Shown in pieces: positions 2,846 to 17,945 of a stretch of 17,945 nucleotides of DNA. The notes below the pieces were generated by a model that ran no database searches, was not told where the DNA came from, and saw nothing but the letters and a program-made list of their open reading frames with translations. A program made the translations under genes and the position numbers. The stretch comes from a virus (taxonomy: Duplodnaviria > Heunggongvirae > Uroviricota > Caudoviricetes): IMG/VR virus record IMGVR_UViG_3300008262_000052; one strand, given 5' to 3'. Position 1 is the first letter of the stretch. Each line of letters begins with the position of its first letter.

Positions 2846-3906
2846 TGTTTATAGAATTTCAGACTACTGACACTGGTTCCGGACGGGGTTTAATTCCCTT
2901 TGCTAACATTATTGATTATGCTATGACCAATACCGCTGAGAGTTTGTCAACAGCACAACCTAACCTATCTTATTATCAATTATTTTCTGATGCAAATCCG
3001 GGTGCTTGGACCAGAAGAGAAACAGTTGGAACCTTTAGTACTGTTAATAATTACTGGGCGTGGAGTCAGTCTGTAACAGGAAAATCTGATCAAGCATTTT
3101 TTCACAAAGGTTTTGCCTTAAGATATAATGGTGATGCGACTACAACCATAGCCAACAACTATTATAATGGATTTATGGGTGCATTTCAAGATCCAGCAAG
3201 CAGAACAACTTTTGCAGGGTTTGACTTTGCAAGGCCGTTGAATCATAATTTTACTACTAGCACTGGCGGGATTACTGCCAGGTACGATACTCTGAGCAGC
3301 TCCGTCAGGGGTATTTATCAGGACAGATTTATTGTGTCGGCAGCCAACGGTTATTTGTTTATAGGAAATGTTACTCAAGCTACTTTTTGGGCCGTGTGTA
3401 ATGGAACAGCTCTTCCAATACATCAATTTTCTACTTCTGCATCTATTCCTATGATTGGATTGACCGGACTAGGAGACGCTACTACCTCATTGACTAGGCA
3501 CGATTTAAGAGTTCATGTACACAAGTATGATAGTGGATCCGGTACTGCATATAATGAGTTGTCAAGCTTCAACCAACAATTAAACAGCGACAGCACTGCC
3601 GCGCCTAACACTACCAATTTCTTAAATCTTTATCCATATTCTCTATCCAATCAAGGATTTCTTGATAGATATGATGCTGATGGTAAAAAAACTACTGCGA
3701 TATATCCTATTATTATTGGCAATCCTATCAAAGGAAACGCATACCAAACTGTTGACGGATTGGTTATTCTCAGTGGACAGAATCATGAAACTGGACAAAC
3801 TTTTTATATAGGAGCAAATAGATATTACAAGTTTGTTTGCACACACGATAGGACCAGTAGACAGCCTGCCTTTGCTGGATTAACAATAGGGGTCCCAATA
3901 AGGTAA
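2845..3906 (+). CDS. Putative fibre-associated/receptor-binding protein (353 aa), likely a distant paralogue of 1754..2845
   Basis: Similar length; both C-termini contain TGQT-x2-(V/I)-x4-Y and end near a Pro. Confidence 0.65.
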   Translation: MFIEFQTTDTGSGRGLIPFANIIDYAMTNTAESLSTAQPNLSYYQLFSDANPGAWTRRETVGTFSTVNNYWAWSQSVTGKSDQAFFHKGFALRYNGDATTTIANNYYNGFMGAFQDPASRTTFAGFDFARPLNHNFTTSTGGITARYDTLSSSVRGIYQDRFIVSAANGYLFIGNVTQATFWAVCNGTALPIHQFSTSASIPMIGLTGLGDATTSLTRHDLRVHVHKYDSGSGTAYNELSSFNQQLNSDSTAAPNTTNFLNLYPYSLSNQGFLDRYDADGKKTTAIYPIIIGNPIKGNAYQTVDGLVILSGQNHETGQTFYIGANRYYKFVCTHDRTSRQPAFAGLTIGVPIR

Positions 3907-4488: not shown

Positions 4489-7400
4489 ATGAAGATAGCA
4501 ATCATAGACATCATTGGTATACCCTATGATGGCACAACAGTATACAAACAAGGACTGGGTGGCTCAGAAAGTGCTGTTACTTTCGTCAGCGAACAACTGG
4601 CCAAACTGGGTTTTGGTGTAACAGTATTCAACAACTGTGATTCAGAAGACACACAGCCTGGCACATACAACGGCGTTGTCTACAGACCCACAAGAGATCT
4701 AGCCAAAGACTGGGAATTTGATATTGTAATCAGTTCAAGAACTGTAATACCTTTCACCGATCCCAAAGACTATCCACAGATGAGAGACAACAGAGCAGTA
4801 CCATTTCAACAGATTGATCTCTACAACAGAATACTCAGCAAAGCCAAAATGAGAATACTGTGGATGCACGACACATTCTGTTTAGGAGATTCGCTGATAG
4901 AAAAACTTGCAACTGAAAACAGAATCACAGACATCTTTACACTGAGCGACTGGCATCTAACCTATATTACCAACTGTGATCACGGTGCAAGACGCAACTT
5001 CGAAGTGCTTAAACCCAAAGTTTTTATAACTAGAAACGGCGTTAACATCTACGATACGCAGACGGACCTAAAAAGCAAAGACCCTGATCTGTTTGTATAC
5101 AACGCCAGTGTTACCAAAGGCATGGTACCCTTGGTTAAAGAAATTTGGCCCAGAGTCAAACAACAGTTGCCCAATGCTAAACTAAAAATAATAGGCGGAT
5201 ACTATAGATTTGGCAAAAGCAGTGCTCCTGATCAACAGGAACAGGATTGGCATGTTATGGCTAACGATACTGTAAACCAACAGTTGGACATAGAGTTTAC
5301 AGGTGTCATATCACAAAAGTCTATTGCACACATACTTCAAAAATCTAGCTTTATGATCTATCCAAGTGCGTTTCCAGAAACGTTTGGTATCAGTTCAGTG
5401 GAAAGCCTCTGCTACAACACACCGTTGATAACCTGCAGATTCGGAGCACTGGAAGAAATAGCACTAGCCGAAGCCTGCTACGTGATTGATTATTCTGTAG
5501 TGCCAAACAATCTGTTTCCTAATATCGACTCGCCACAACAGATTGAAAAGTTTGTTGCTACAACTGTACAGGCATATCGTGACCGATATCTACATCAACA
5601 AAAACAAAACTATTGTAATATAATAAAAGACGTAGTAGGTTGGGACACAGTGGCTCTACAGTGGAAACAGCATTTCTATTACAAATTAAAACAGCATCTA
5701 CCTGTGGATGAATACAGAGCAGTGCAAAAAATAAATCAACGCATACACAAGATATGGAAAAGACGCTATACCAATCCTTGTGAAATGTCGCACACAGCCA
5801 GTTATCCACAGCAGAAGATAGAGATTGTAAGTCCTTTCTATAATGCAGAACACTACTTAGAAAATCACATACTCAGTGTTGCTGCACAGGACTATGACAA
5901 CTGGGAACACACGCTGATTGATGACTGTTCTACAGATCAAAGCGTTGCTGTAATAGAACAGACTATTGCATCTTTGCCTGAACATATACAAAGCAAGTTC
6001 AAAATTGTAAAGAGAACTGGTCACTACGGTGCAGTGAGAAATCAAATTGAAACTGTTAGAAGTTTAGAAACAGACAGCATTGTCATGCTACTGGATGGCG
6101 ATGACAGTTTAACCAATGACAACAGCATATTTCACTACTACAACGATCGATACCTAGACGGAGCAGAGTTTACCTATGGCAGTTGTTGGAGCATAGCAGA
6201 CAACATTCCTTTGATAGCACAGGAATATCCACAGCACATCAAAGAAACACGAGCATATAGAACACACCATTTCAACTGGATACTGCCCTATACACATCTA
6301 AGAACATTTAGAAAAAGTCTAATAGACAGCGTAGATGACACACTGTTCAAAGATAACAAGGGCGAATGGTACGGCGCCGGTGGCGATGGCAGTGTATTCT
6401 ATGCATTGATAGAGCAGGCTGATCCTAACAGTGTACAGGCAGTACAAGACATAATGGTAAACTACAATGACGTTAATCCACTTAATGATTACAAAGTAAA
6501 CAGCACAGAACAGAACAAAAATGCAAGAGAGATTGTCAACATGAATCAACAAAAAAAAAAGATCCTGATAGCGATACCCACAGCCAAGTATATAGAACCG
6601 GAAACCTTCAAGAGTATATACGATCTGGACGTTCCAGAAGGCTATCAGACAGTGTTTCAATACTTCTATGGTTATAACATAGATCAAATACGAAATCTAA
6701 TTGCAGACTGGGTAGTCAAAGGATATGACTATCTACTGAGTGTAGACAGCGACATTGTACTACCAAGAGACACACTGAGAAGATTTTTATCACATGACGT
6801 TGACATGGTCAGCGGCTTGTACATACAACGCAAGCCAGGGCAGCACACTTTAGAAATATACGAAAACAATGACCGAGGCGGTGTTAGCAACATACCTTAC
6901 GGTAAAATCAAAGACCGCGGACTTGTGCCCATTAACGGCTGTGGCTTTGGATGTGTACTAATTAAAAAGTCTGTGTTTCAAGCAATACCCTATCCACACT
7001 TTGTTTATCACAGCGCACTGAATCACGCCAATACTATTAGTGAAGATGTAGACTTCTGTGCCAAAGCACTTAAGAAAGGATTTAAGATCTACGCCGACAC
7101 TGCTATTAAGTGTAGACACATAGGTCAGGGCGAGTTTACCGTAGACGATTCAATACCTGCTATAGACAACAGTATAGAACTACGATTGAGAGATCTAAGT
7201 TCGCAGAGATTGTTACCAAAACCGCATGTAGATTATTTGCAACAATTAAAGGATGGAGGATTTACTCCAAAAACTATTTACGATGTAGGTGCATGTGTAC
7301 TGCATTGGACCAACGAAGCAAAACAGATTTGGCCAGACAGTACTGTTATAGCATTTGAAGCCATGCCCAGTTGTGAGTTTCTTTACAAAGAAAACAACAT

Positions 7401-7839
7401 GATGTATCATGTTGGCGTACTAAGTGATGAGAGTGGCAAAACTGTAGAGTTCTATCAGAATGATTGGCACCCTGGCGGCAACAGTTATTATATTGAAAAC
7501 AGTGACATCAATGCCAACAGTGCATTTTACTTTAATGAAACACACAAGCGCACTTATCAAACAGTAACACTGGATGCAGTGCATAGATTAAAACAGTTGC
7601 CCGAGCCTGAACTGTTAAAAATGGATGTACAGGGCGCAGAACTCGATGTACTGCGTGGTGCAGCAGAAGTGTTAGAAACTGTAGAACATGTTATACTAGA
7701 ACTGCAAAGCGTTGAATATAATAAAGGTGCGCCTCTAAGAGAAACTGTGTTTGAATATATGCACAGCATAGGATTTGAGTTGGTAGCACAGTTTACAAAC
7801 TATGGCCCCGATGGTGACTATCACTTTAAGCGTAGATAA
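4489..7839 (+). CDS. Multidomain glycosyltransferase-methyltransferase: GT4 (GT-B) + GT2 + GT2-like + FkbM-family methyltransferase
   Basis: GT4 E-x7-E motif YPSAFPETFGISSVE. GT2 motifs IVSPFYNA..IDDCSTD and LDGDD from about aa 441. Second GT-A domain ILIAIPT..SVDSD..GCGFGCVLI..SEDVDFC from about aa 689. FkbM motifs IYDVGA and LKMDVQGAELDVLRG from about aa 927. Confidence 0.88.
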   Translation: MKIAIIDIIGIPYDGTTVYKQGLGGSESAVTFVSEQLAKLGFGVTVFNNCDSEDTQPGTYNGVVYRPTRDLAKDWEFDIVISSRTVIPFTDPKDYPQMRDNRAVPFQQIDLYNRILSKAKMRILWMHDTFCLGDSLIEKLATENRITDIFTLSDWHLTYITNCDHGARRNFEVLKPKVFITRNGVNIYDTQTDLKSKDPDLFVYNASVTKGMVPLVKEIWPRVKQQLPNAKLKIIGGYYRFGKSSAPDQQEQDWHVMANDTVNQQLDIEFTGVISQKSIAHILQKSSFMIYPSAFPETFGISSVESLCYNTPLITCRFGALEEIALAEACYVIDYSVVPNNLFPNIDSPQQIEKFVATTVQAYRDRYLHQQKQNYCNIIKDVVGWDTVALQWKQHFYYKLKQHLPVDEYRAVQKINQRIHKIWKRRYTNPCEMSHTASYPQQKIEIVSPFYNAEHYLENHILSVAAQDYDNWEHTLIDDCSTDQSVAVIEQTIASLPEHIQSKFKIVKRTGHYGAVRNQIETVRSLETDSIVMLLDGDDSLTNDNSIFHYYNDRYLDGAEFTYGSCWSIADNIPLIAQEYPQHIKETRAYRTHHFNWILPYTHLRTFRKSLIDSVDDTLFKDNKGEWYGAGGDGSVFYALIEQADPNSVQAVQDIMVNYNDVNPLNDYKVNSTEQNKNAREIVNMNQQKKKILIAIPTAKYIEPETFKSIYDLDVPEGYQTVFQYFYGYNIDQIRNLIADWVVKGYDYLLSVDSDIVLPRDTLRRFLSHDVDMVSGLYIQRKPGQHTLEIYENNDRGGVSNIPYGKIKDRGLVPINGCGFGCVLIKKSVFQAIPYPHFVYHSALNHANTISEDVDFCAKALKKGFKIYADTAIKCRHIGQGEFTVDDSIPAIDNSIELRLRDLSSQRLLPKPHVDYLQQLKDGGFTPKTIYDVGACVLHWTNEAKQIWPDSTVIAFEAMPSCEFLYKENNMMYHVGVLSDESGKTVEFYQNDWHPGGNSYYIENSDINANSAFYFNETHKRTYQTVTLDAVHRLKQLPEPELLKMDVQGAELDVLRGAAEVLETVEHVILELQSVEYNKGAPLRETVFEYMHSIGFELVAQFTNYGPDGDYHFKRR

Positions 7840-16107: not shown

Positions 16108-16525
16108 ACAGGCTGTTTCAGAACTAGAAAATCTTATAGAATTTAAAATCAAAGATTACTTAATACCAGAACACAAAGGTAATACTATTCGTATTGACAG
16201 TATTCTTATTAGACCTAGCAAAACGCATGGGTACATTTTGGTTGATACAAAAAACAACAAAACTGTTACTACAACCTTTAGTAAGATCGGTGCCGTTGCA
16301 GTTGCAAAGGCATATGCTAAATCAAAGCCCTGGCGTGGATTAATGCACTACGATCGAGTGATAGAGAAAAACTATAACGATAGTCAATTTTATAATCATA
16401 TTATTGAAACCACAGAAAACCATCCACGACGTGTGGCAATGGAATCTCTGCTGGAGATATCCACAGACAAGATCGATAATGCAAAACGTGTTCTAGACGG
16501 GTTCATTCTTTCCGACATTAGATAA
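16094..16525 (+). CDS. Hypothetical protein (143 aa)
   Basis: Overlaps the previous gene by 14 nt and continues the operon. Confidence 0.75.
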   Translation: MKNLEQAVSELENLIEFKIKDYLIPEHKGNTIRIDSILIRPSKTHGYILVDTKNNKTVTTTFSKIGAVAVAKAYAKSKPWRGLMHYDRVIEKNYNDSQFYNHIIETTENHPRRVAMESLLEISTDKIDNAKRVLDGFILSDIR

Positions 16526-16556
16526 ATAAAAATAAAGCATTATAGGAAACCCAACT

Positions 16557-17387
16557 ATGCAACTTAGAGAATTCGCAAAACCAGTCACTGCCAAGTCATT
16601 AAACGAAAGCCTAGCCGCACGTTTTGGACAAAAAATCAATCTAGAGCGTTTCACGCTAGAGCAACTTCAAGATGTTCGTAACAGAATACGTACACAGTTA
16701 AGTCAAGTTGAAACCAATGAATCATTTGATTCAGTACACAACGAAACTTATCAAAAGTCAAAACTAATGTTAGATGTATTAAATGCAGCAATCAGTGAAC
16801 GTGGACATGTGGATGACGAATCATTAGAAGAAAGCACATTGCGTGAGGGCGCAGAGGACACAGCCGAATTGGTCATGGCTGCAAAAGAAATGGTCGATCG
16901 TATCACCAGTTGGATGGAAGATACAGCAGAAATGCAAACAGAAAGCATGTTAGAACTTGCAGACGCTATTCGTGACGAAATGGGTCAAGAGTCAGCAGAC
17001 AGTTTCACCAATGCAGTTAGACCTGCACTGGAAAGCCTTTATGCTGCATTGGAATCAACTCGCACAGCACTAACTGGCGGTGTTGGCACACTAACAGGCG
17101 AAGGTGGTCCAATGCCAATGGGCGGAGAAGATGACATGGACATGAGCATGGAACCAACTGTGGACGACGAGATGCCCACAGACGACATGGATGCAGGCAT
17201 GGACATGGATGAACCTGCAGATGACGAGTTCGGTGCAGCAGAGCCAGCAACCGGCGGTGAAGAGCCAGCAGGTCGTGCCAAGCGGGAATCAAAAAGTTAC
17301 AACATGAGTAAGATTCTTGGACGTGTCAAAGCAAACGAAACTGTTAACCCAACTCGTTTAGCAAGTATCCTTTCAAAAAAAAAGTAA
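16557..17387 (+). CDS. Acidic coiled-coil protein, possibly head scaffold or core (276 aa)
   Basis: TAAATA at 16523 and AGGA SD; long helical region, D/E/M-rich low-complexity linker, ends SKKK-stop. Confidence 0.7.
   Translation: MQLREFAKPVTAKSLNESLAARFGQKINLERFTLEQLQDVRNRIRTQLSQVETNESFDSVHNETYQKSKLMLDVLNAAISERGHVDDESLEESTLREGAEDTAELVMAAKEMVDRITSWMEDTAEMQTESMLELADAIRDEMGQESADSFTNAVRPALESLYAALESTRTALTGGVGTLTGEGGPMPMGGEDDMDMSMEPTVDDEMPTDDMDAGMDMDEPADDEFGAAEPATGGEEPAGRAKRESKSYNMSKILGRVKANETVNPTRLASILSKKK
17375..17387 (+). other. Candidate -1 frameshift / slippage site (A9 run; A_AAA_AAG followed by TAA)
   Basis: In-frame X_XXY_YYZ heptamer at 17378-17384; the -1 frame is open from 17348 to 17692. 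Confidence 0.65.
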
Positions 17388-17692
17388 CTGAGAATATCGA
17401 TACAGACAAGTTGTATCAGGTGTTAACCCTTTTGAAAAACAAAGGGTTAACAAAATTTAACATCCAACAATTAGATAGATATATGCAAAACGTAGGCGGA
17501 CAACAGTTCTCTTACGATGTGTTCAAAGCAGCATATGACTCAGATGACAAGATCCGTGGTCTAATAAAAGATTTCAATCAAGATTCTATTACACTAAAGA
17601 CACGTGAACTTGATGATGTTGGCGGTGGTACTGCGTCTAAAAAAGATGTCGTTGGCCAAATGGCCAAACGTGCTACCAAAATAGGCTCTTGA
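17381..17692 (+). CDS. Downstream coding region in the -1 frame (KVTENIDTDKLYQVLTLL...), probably translated as a frameshift extension
   Basis: Track ORF 17411..17692 starts at a TTG with no SD; the frame extends upstream through the A-run. Confidence 0.65.
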   Translation, partial: KVTENIDTDKLYQVLTLLKNKGLTKFNIQQLDRYMQNVGGQQFSYDVFKAAYDSDDKIRGLIKDFNQDSITLKTRELDDVGGGTASKKDVVGQMAKRATKIGS

Positions 17693-17717
17693 CTTCTTTA
17701 GAAAAAAATGTTATATT
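17689..17717 (+). promoter_or_regulatory. Sigma70-type promoter TTGACT-N17-TATATT with extended TGn
   Basis: Direct sequence reading; GGAGAG SD before ATG 17738. Confidence 0.75.
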
Positions 17718-17737
17718 AAGTCAAACTGGAGAGACCC

Positions 17738-17944
17738 ATGACTGAAAGAACAAAAGAAGTAATTAGTGAAAACATCAAACAAATTTTAAATGAGTATGTA
17801 CAACCATATGTGGAACAACACGGCGGCGAAGTTCGTTTTGTAGAGTACGACAACGGCCGAGTGAAACTAGAAATGAGTGGTGCATGTTCTGGTTGCTCAG
17901 GTAGCACAGCAACACTTCAATTTGGTATTAAAAATCTATTAACC
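17738..17944 (+). CDS. Nfu/NifU C-terminal domain Fe-S cluster carrier protein; 3' partial
   Basis: Manual translation MTERTKEVISENIKQILNEYVQPYVEQHGGEVRFVEYDNGRVKLEMSGACSGCSGSTATLQFGIKNLLT has the VxPxVxxHGG..GACxGC..TL Nfu signature. Confidence 0.88.
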   Translation, partial: MTERTKEVISENIKQILNEYVQPYVEQHGGEVRFVEYDNGRVKLEMSGACSGCSGSTATLQFGIKNLLT

Positions 17945-17945
17945 A

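Follow-up and report, generated by a model that had tools for sequence, protein, structure and literature searches.

How is a reading frame of 102 codons expressed when it lies directly behind a phage head gene and can be reached only from that gene? The question is raised by a locus in the IMG/VR virus record IMGVR_UViG_3300008262_000052, a stretch of 17,945 nucleotides (nt) from an uncultured giant aquatic phage, which as a whole is called the window here. An open reading frame (ORF) at 16557-17387 (+) encodes a protein of 276 amino acids (aa) with the C-terminus ...ILSKKK, and the last codons of this gene are TCA AAA AAA AAG TAA. A -1 shift on the A_AAA_AAG contained in them yields ...SKKK-VTENIDTDKLYQVL..., a fusion of 276 + 102 = 378 aa. 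The original prediction, made from the letters of the window, was a programmed -1 frameshift producing the 276-aa and 378-aa forms, and the sequence reads as it claimed: A_AAA_AAG directly precedes the stop of the 276-aa gene, and 17348-17692 is open in the -1 frame. We put the probability at about 0.8 that the gene pair is a recoding unit, in which -1 recoding would add the extension to a head-core protein and a protease would then release it. The parts of the locus are listed below.

16557-17387, + strand: zero-frame gene for a 276-aa acidic, all-helical protein of the head-core or internal type (P0001)
17375-17384, + strand: slip site A9G (nine A's at 17375-17383, G at 17384), conserved in related loci
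17378-17384, + strand: heptamer A_AAA_AAG, in the zero-frame register
17385-17387, + strand: zero-frame stop TAA, directly adjoining the slip site
17384-17692, + strand: extension in the -1 frame, 102 codons and TGA, with access only through the upstream gene

A TAA at 17345-17347 closes the -1 frame, after which no stop occurs until the TGA at 17690-17692. The frame holds no ATG, GTG or TTG before the run; the first candidate starts are TTG 17411, GTG 17420, TTG 17432 and ATG 17483, and no Shine-Dalgarno (SD) sequence was found before any of the four. The earlier statement that the frame has only an SD-less TTG was right about the missing SD and slightly too narrow about the codon, GTG 17420 and ATG 17483 being candidates as well. 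Taken alone, the A9 run is unremarkable in this AT-rich window, where three such runs occur against 0.99 expected and 28 of 200 shuffles reached that number; its significance therefore rests on conservation.

Conservation of the run in related loci

Scanning viral contigs gave 80 related loci at 50-76% protein identity, to which the downstream ORF added one; removal of identical ones left 63 loci, at 50-77% protein identity. A run of eight to ten A's (A8-A10) in a heptamer-compatible register was kept in 58 of the 63, and with it the slip site and -1 overlap that had been described from the window. The site took the following forms.

NNA AAA AAA AAG: 51 of 63 loci
NNA AAA AAA AAA, then stop (A10): 4 of 63 loci
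TCT AAA AAA AAG G: 2 of 63 loci
TCT AAA AAA AAA G: 1 of 63 loci
No run: 5 of 63 loci

Among the 58 run-bearing loci, the run was A9 or A10 in 56 and A8 in two, and the heptamer (A_AAA_AAG or A_AAA_AAA) stood in the zero-frame register in every one, including a clade in which the run has moved by one base. The codon before the Lys run was mostly TCA, and CCA and TTA also occurred, so that the ninth A was retained despite the change of amino acid. Other columns of the same gene served as the control: conserved Lys columns were split about 65:35 between AAA and AAG, and conserved Ser columns used four to six codons. As the run is kept while these Lys and Ser codons vary, the comparison shows selection at the nucleotide level on the A9G run with which the 276-aa gene ends. 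The stop adjoined the run directly in 45/58 loci and lay no more than 13 nt away in all 58; in the remaining 13 the run preceded it by one to four codons, indicating that the run rather than the stop is the constant element. A G followed the run in 54 of the 58. An identical 276-aa product is indexed for 74 blocks of the assembly collection, and the terminus SKKK was present in 117 of the best 120 homologues in a family of 3646.

The downstream frame as a continuation of the upstream gene

In every locus, the -1 frame stayed open over 98-128 codons. No ATG, GTG or TTG occurred in this frame between the last stop ahead of the run and the run itself in any of the 58 run-bearing loci, and the first start codon after the run was scattered from codon 0 to codon 39, with none within 45 codons in four loci. 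Of the 58 loci, only four had an SD-like 4-mer ahead of one or more of their first three candidate starts. Amino-acid conservation began at the first -1 codon, with [V/I/L]-x-E followed by a K-L-Y-Q-V-L helix. The column entropy after the slip was 1.01, 0.82 and 1.45 at codon positions 1, 2 and 3, which is a codon periodicity that sets in at the first -1 codon, and the codon of the junction Glu was invariant at positions 1 and 2 and varied at the third base only. By this comparison, the 102-codon frame is a protein-coding continuation that has no start of its own and begins at the run. Gene callers split the unit and give its second half arbitrary starts, GTG 17420 in the window and varied codons in relatives; thousands of metagenomic annotations of the pair are accordingly wrong in the same way.

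Relatives of the extension were sought by an exhaustive profile-free search among 1.8 billion cluster representatives, which gave 128. They were short proteins with starts at query residues 1-62, longer proteins with the domain at the N-terminus, or a tandem copy. No in-frame fusion behind the core protein occurred among these 128 representatives, and none was found among longer proteins, which by that search's own caveat is weak evidence. The tandem copy, P0202 (206 aa), is an in-frame duplicate joined by ...K-K-V-S-E...; in P0151 (261 aa) and P0213 (463 aa), the module is N-terminal in a longer protein with an M-K-I/L leader.

The two protein parts

The 276-aa protein has leader-like N-terminal motifs, MQLRE...LNE, of which the N-terminal L-N-E is invariant, and it matched phrog_14154 ("virion structural protein") at 9e-16. 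Its structural model, of low confidence with a predicted local distance difference test (pLDDT) score of 61, has long helices and a disordered acidic stretch at residues 183-247. The extension has two features.

17402-17596, + strand: winged-helix-like domain, extension residues 7-71, AlphaFold2 blocks of pLDDT 84-92, topology H-E-H-H-E-E
17648-17677, + strand: C-terminal motif V-x-x-M-A-K-R-A-T, with A94 and A97 invariant and V90 and M93 in at least 90% of alignment A2

The first predicted helix of the extension (residues 7-19) begins upstream of every possible start codon. Beyond residue 71, a disordered linker leads to the conserved C-terminal motif. The best structural matches of the extension were all winged-helix domains, and they were weak (Foldseek E values of at least 0.03; VIA Z 6.8). 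No Pfam family matched the extension above the cut-off. Two Pfam matches below the cut-off, HBM for the extension and NERD for a neighbour, were disregarded.

Relatives with separate genes

Neither ORF had a DNA or protein match in cultured phages at an E value of 1e-3. Rak2-like jumbo phages were first seen as matches with E values of about 0.3 and were then confirmed with profiles. They have the same gene pair before an exonuclease gene, and the exonuclease, with 44% identity and an E value of 4e-58, confirms the synteny. The upstream protein aligned with a 210-aa virion protein of Salmonella phage PHA46 in hhalign with 96% probability and an E value of 3e-9. The small protein of PHA46, of 109 aa, has an SD, an ATG, the leader M-R-F-S-D-L-T-E-E and the same C-terminal motif, V-x-x-M-A-K-R-A-T, and its gene pair has no A run. 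In phage CBB, CBB_298 and CBB_299 are the syntenic pair and are distant orthologues of the core protein and the extension; both were detected by electrospray ionisation tandem mass spectrometry in CsCl-purified virions (PMC5259590). The description of the product as head-associated is borne out to this extent, the distant orthologues of both parts being virion proteins by mass spectrometry.

The five loci without the run (L046 at 2555-2560, L053, L059, L063 and L064) form one clade, in which the core protein ends 33 residues earlier, the two genes overlap as TAATG, and the small protein starts M-K-I-S-D-I-I-N-E. More distant metagenomic relatives have TAATG, ATGA or TGA-ATG junctions and leaders such as M-R-F-S-D-I-V-K-V-I-T-E. 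In a maximum-likelihood tree of the core protein, the outgroups are the separate-gene forms, the run-bearing loci are the ingroup, and the run-less clade is nested within it (support 99/94). From this topology, the frameshift replaced the small protein's own start and leader, and one lineage reverted. The ancestral state would thus have been two coupled genes with a cleavable leader on the small protein (M-K/R-I/F-x-D/E...[I/V]-x-E), followed later by a single reversion. Orthologues with an independent start and no slippery site had been named in advance as what would speak against a frameshift. Such orthologues do exist; being outgroups and one nested secondary reversion, they show what the frameshift replaced and do not refute it.

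Two relatives have the run followed by GTGA (L086 at about 40-70 and L051 at about 3360-3370), so that a GTG start shares bases with the stop right at the slip site. The arrangement is possibly an intermediate between coupling and recoding.

Junction motif and predicted release

The first residues of the extension resemble a cleavage site.

17384-17392, + strand: Val-Thr-Glu at the junction, predicted prohead-protease site ([V/I/L]-x-E, cut after Glu)

All 63 loci had a [V/I/L]-x-E motif no more than nine residues from the slip; the Glu was present in at least 90% of alignment A2, and the motif aligned with the leader ends ([I/V]xE) of the separate-gene relatives. Neighbouring genes of the window start with T4-like targeting leaders of the M-K-x-x-x-E-F-I-x-E type. 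A prohead protease of the gp21 family (PF03420, 91 bits) was present in both near-complete relatives, G001 and G002 (330 and 358 kb), which also carry the A9G pair. The likeness of VTE to a cleavage motif, pointed out beforehand, extends to all loci, and a protease of the matching type occurs in relatives; the cleavage itself is inferred. The predicted winged-helix tail is probably cut off inside the capsid by the head protease, as these motifs suggest.

The proposed sequence of events is the following. Expression would lead, in a minority of cases, to a -1 shift at the run and so to the 378-aa fusion. Two routes would lead to the identical protein: RNA polymerase may add one A on the A9, or the ribosome may slip on A_AAA_AAG before the adjacent stop. 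Probably both operate, and we lean slightly towards a larger contribution from the polymerase, given that conservation covers nine A's and not just seven. The core-protein part would carry the fusion into the prohead, where the gp21-type protease would cut after the junction Glu (VTE|N) and leave a winged-helix-like protein of about 99 residues inside the capsid. The amount of freed protein relative to core protein would then be low and fixed, by the logic of retroviral Gag-Pol. A fuller version of this idea is a phage Gag-Pol, in which a large clade of uncultured jumbo phages swapped the start and targeting leader of a small packaged winged-helix-like protein for a recoded tail on the core protein, the prohead protease cuts this tail free, A9 slippage sets the number of copies per capsid, and one lineage reverted; we offer it tentatively, at a little less than even odds.

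RNA structure around the run

Two hairpins follow the slip site in the window.

17399-17417, + strand: hairpin 1, 7 base pairs (bp), 14 nt 3' of the slip site
17421-17452, + strand: hairpin 2, 12 bp, stronger

The hairpin originally reported at 17399-17417 is thus real, and the stronger one behind it had gone unmentioned. Together they fold at -20.8 kcal/mol with a z score of -3.9. Across the 58 loci, the 85 nt after the run folded better than shuffled sequences, with a mean z of -2.25 against -0.1 to -0.7 in control segments. RNAalifold gave no consensus structure for the 17 hairpin-bearing loci.

Hairpin 2 is centred on the Leu-Lys-Asp/Asn-Lys-Gly codons, and strong hairpins occupy the same place in L003, L006, L008, L013, L027 and L060; their stem sequences differ, their register shifts slightly, and in some loci a T-rich tract follows in the manner of a terminator.

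Points against the proposal

Several observations count against a recoding unit of this kind, or against parts of it. The evidence for expression is sequence comparison. Packaging of the fusion and cleavage after the junction Glu are inferred from motifs, and the evidence for the protease comes from the relatives G001 and G002. The similarity of the extension to CBB_299 and to the 109-aa protein of PHA46 consists of weak profile scores (58-72% probability) together with synteny. As for recoding signals, the spacing of the downstream hairpins is outside the canonical 5-9 nt (at least 14 nt in the window), their registers differ, and some loci have none. An upstream SD-like stimulator was found in 3/58 loci, against 8% in control windows, although such an element is not obligatory for programmed -1 ribosomal frameshift sites. 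No Rfam frameshift element matched at E values up to 1. With regard to the share of the polymerase, a ribosomal shift explains the heptamer register and the G behind the run (54/58) at least as well as polymerase slippage does, and two loci have no more than A8.

Which mechanism, and is it recoding at all?

Of the rival accounts, the likeliest is that transcriptional slippage predominates: the host RNA polymerase would add an A on the A9 of the late template, and the A10 mRNA would be translated normally. The length of the run equals that of the RNA:DNA hybrid, and runs of nine A/T slip efficiently in vivo in bacteria (PMC5009743). Whether the preceding codon is for Ser, Pro or Leu, the ninth A is retained, and A10 variants are tolerated in four lineages. 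The +1 frame closes within one to seven codons in nearly all loci, so that other slippage products would be harmless. There is also a precedent in tssM of Citrobacter rodentium, which is reported to give two length variants from a poly-A run (PMC4256274). The two A8 loci do not fit, and the heptamer register, the G, the adjacent stop and the downstream structure are left unexplained. That the polymerase is mainly responsible is, in our judgement, just short of an even chance.

A mainly ribosomal -1 shift, with a negligible part for the polymerase, would occur by tandem tRNA-Lys slippage on A_AAA_AAG or by P-site slippage on A_AAG before a release factor has reached the adjacent stop codon. It accounts for the features just left over: the heptamer in register in 58/58 loci, even in the clade with the displaced run, the G in 54/58, the stop adjacent in 45/58 and the excess of RNA structure in the 85 nt downstream. 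A_AAA_AAG is, moreover, the most shift-prone heptamer in E. coli (PMC5009743). Seven bases would be enough for the ribosome, whereas conservation extends to nine A's, one of them at a synonymous wobble position; the SD-like stimulator is missing, and the hairpins are neither canonically spaced nor universal. The G has another possible explanation, since it opens the Val codon at the junction. G002 encodes tRNA-Lys with CUU and UUU anticodons and G001 with UUU only, and the tRNA-Lys(CUU) of G002 should stabilise decoding of AAG, a point in favour of the polymerase. We regard a mainly ribosomal shift as possible, on the doubtful side. Of the programmed -1 frameshift as first proposed, the shift is supported by conservation and by the start-less coding frame, whereas the ribosomal mechanism is not established: the full A9 run under selection by itself supports polymerase slippage, an alternative already flagged with the first proposal.

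In the tRNA islands of the same two relatives, ARAGORN reported two tRNA-like genes with four-base anticodons, tgat and tatg (L089 7169-7240 in G002 and L092 9229-9302 in G001).

The fusion might also be made and stay uncleaved. The predicted winged helix would then sit at the C-terminus of a less abundant core-protein form and could, for example, tether DNA or another component. The cut is predicted from motifs, and the T7 10B and lambda gpGT fusions work uncleaved. The near-invariance of [V/I/L]xE at the junction and its alignment with the leader end in separate-gene relatives argue for release, as does the reversion clade, in which the module works as a free small protein. An uncleaved fusion is therefore unlikely.

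More improbable still is an independent start, or termination-reinitiation, downstream, with the A run kept merely for a C-terminal Lys-Lys-Lys. Gene callers do assign starts (GTG 17420 here, various codons in relatives), the TAATG, ATGA and TGA-ATG junctions of separate-gene relatives show coupling to be the ancestral mode, and a GTG directly follows the run in two loci. No start is conserved, however, and four loci have none in 45 codons; protein conservation and periodicity precede every candidate start, and helix 1 would be lost. Moreover, a need for Lys-Lys-Lys fixes neither AAA AAA AAG nor the wobble A before it, and the codon at the junction, which is usually GTA, differs from AUG at two positions.

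A homopolymer error of sequencing or assembly that hides a single 378-aa ORF, or a decaying gene, can practically be dismissed: homopolymers are error-prone on some platforms, but the same product is indexed in 74 collection blocks, the same -1 offset recurs with A9G, A10 and A8 in 58 diverged loci, no fused ORF was found among the 128 representatives or the longer proteins searched, and the downstream frame is under purifying selection.

Comparison with known systems

The nearest precedent for the site is dnaX, where E. coli uses a -1 ribosomal frameshift on A_AAA_AAG and Thermus thermophilus uses transcriptional slippage on a run of nine (PMC5009743). The phage site resembles dnaX in the heptamer, the homopolymer of nine, the shared N-terminal part and the set ratio of products, and the two dnaX precedents together indicate that slippage of either kind is able to fill this role. 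The dnaX shift leads into a frame that closes almost immediately, so that the product is shortened, whereas the phage shift would add a folded domain of 102 residues. In E. coli, the dnaX site is flanked by an SD-like element on its 5' side and a hairpin 6 nt away on its 3' side; neither such an element nor such a hairpin was found at the phage site. In tssM of Citrobacter rodentium, a poly-A run likewise lies inside the coding region and two length variants arise; slippage there is reported to rescue an interrupted gene in one species (PMC4256274), in contrast to the phage site, which is conserved across a large clade.

In the Gag-Pol systems of retroviruses, Ty elements and totiviruses, a structural ORF ends near a -1 slip site and recoding sets the product ratio, as it would here. 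There the structural part carries the minor fusion into the particle and a viral protease cuts the junction, as we propose for the phage. Those systems belong to eukaryotic RNA viruses or retro-elements, their cargo is an enzyme and a pseudoknot or hairpin stimulates the shift, whereas this is a double-stranded DNA phage with a small, predicted winged-helix cargo.

Among phages, the internal proteins of T4 (IPI-III and Alt), from which gp21 removes a targeting sequence, are comparable in their leader types, their [L/I/V]-x-E sites and the gp21-family protease found in relatives. They differ in that here a whole upstream protein takes the place of the leader, and there is no sequence similarity; none of the T4 internal proteins is known to arise by recoding. 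T7 10A/10B, lambda G/GT, other tail chaperones and the capsid and tail genes of Listeria phages are likewise late structural genes with a minor, C-terminally extended form at a fixed ratio. The present gene is unlike them in being of the head-core or internal type, in its poly-A site and in its predicted protease site, those extensions not being cleaved free. CBB_298/299 and the 210/109-aa pair of PHA46 agree with the phage locus in place, in a homologous upstream protein, and in the length, leader type and C-terminal motif of the small protein. Their two genes are separate, however, with SD and ATG and without an A run, and the similarity of the small proteins is weak.

Full-text literature searches found no report of a recoding site in head-core or internal proteins of T4-related jumbo phages, in agreement with the original remark that a frameshift in this gene type was unfamiliar. 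The locus therefore adds a deeply conserved recoding site to a gene class for which no precedent was found; poly-A recoding sites as a class are known. The family also offers natural controls, namely the separate-gene outgroups, the one reversion and the A8, A9 and A10 variants, which make ribosomal versus polymerase slippage, and the metering of a minor capsid cargo, directly testable. If Gag-Pol-like loading is true, the core protein could carry foreign proteins into such capsids.

Other features of the window

Upstream of the 276-aa gene there is one promoter-like element, whose identification is one of resemblance to TATAAATA only.

16521-16528, + strand: T4-late-promoter-like box GATAAATA, 28 nt 5' of the ATG of the 276-aa gene

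A sigma-70-like promoter at 17689-17717 (+) lies at the end of the -1 ORF (TTGACT, 17 nt, TATATT, with TG before the second hexamer), and just after it, at 17738, comes a NifU-like gene. From the position of this promoter, the recoded pair looks like the end of its own transcription unit. No intrinsic terminator was predicted in 16300-17945.

The window contains a second long run, A10 followed by G, at 6551-6560 (+) in the register CAA AAA AAA AAG. It lies within an ORF of 1116 aa (4489-7839) with GT1, GT2 and FkbM-methyltransferase domains, between the GT2 and methyltransferase domains, and a -1 shift there would append 38 residues and lose the methyltransferase.

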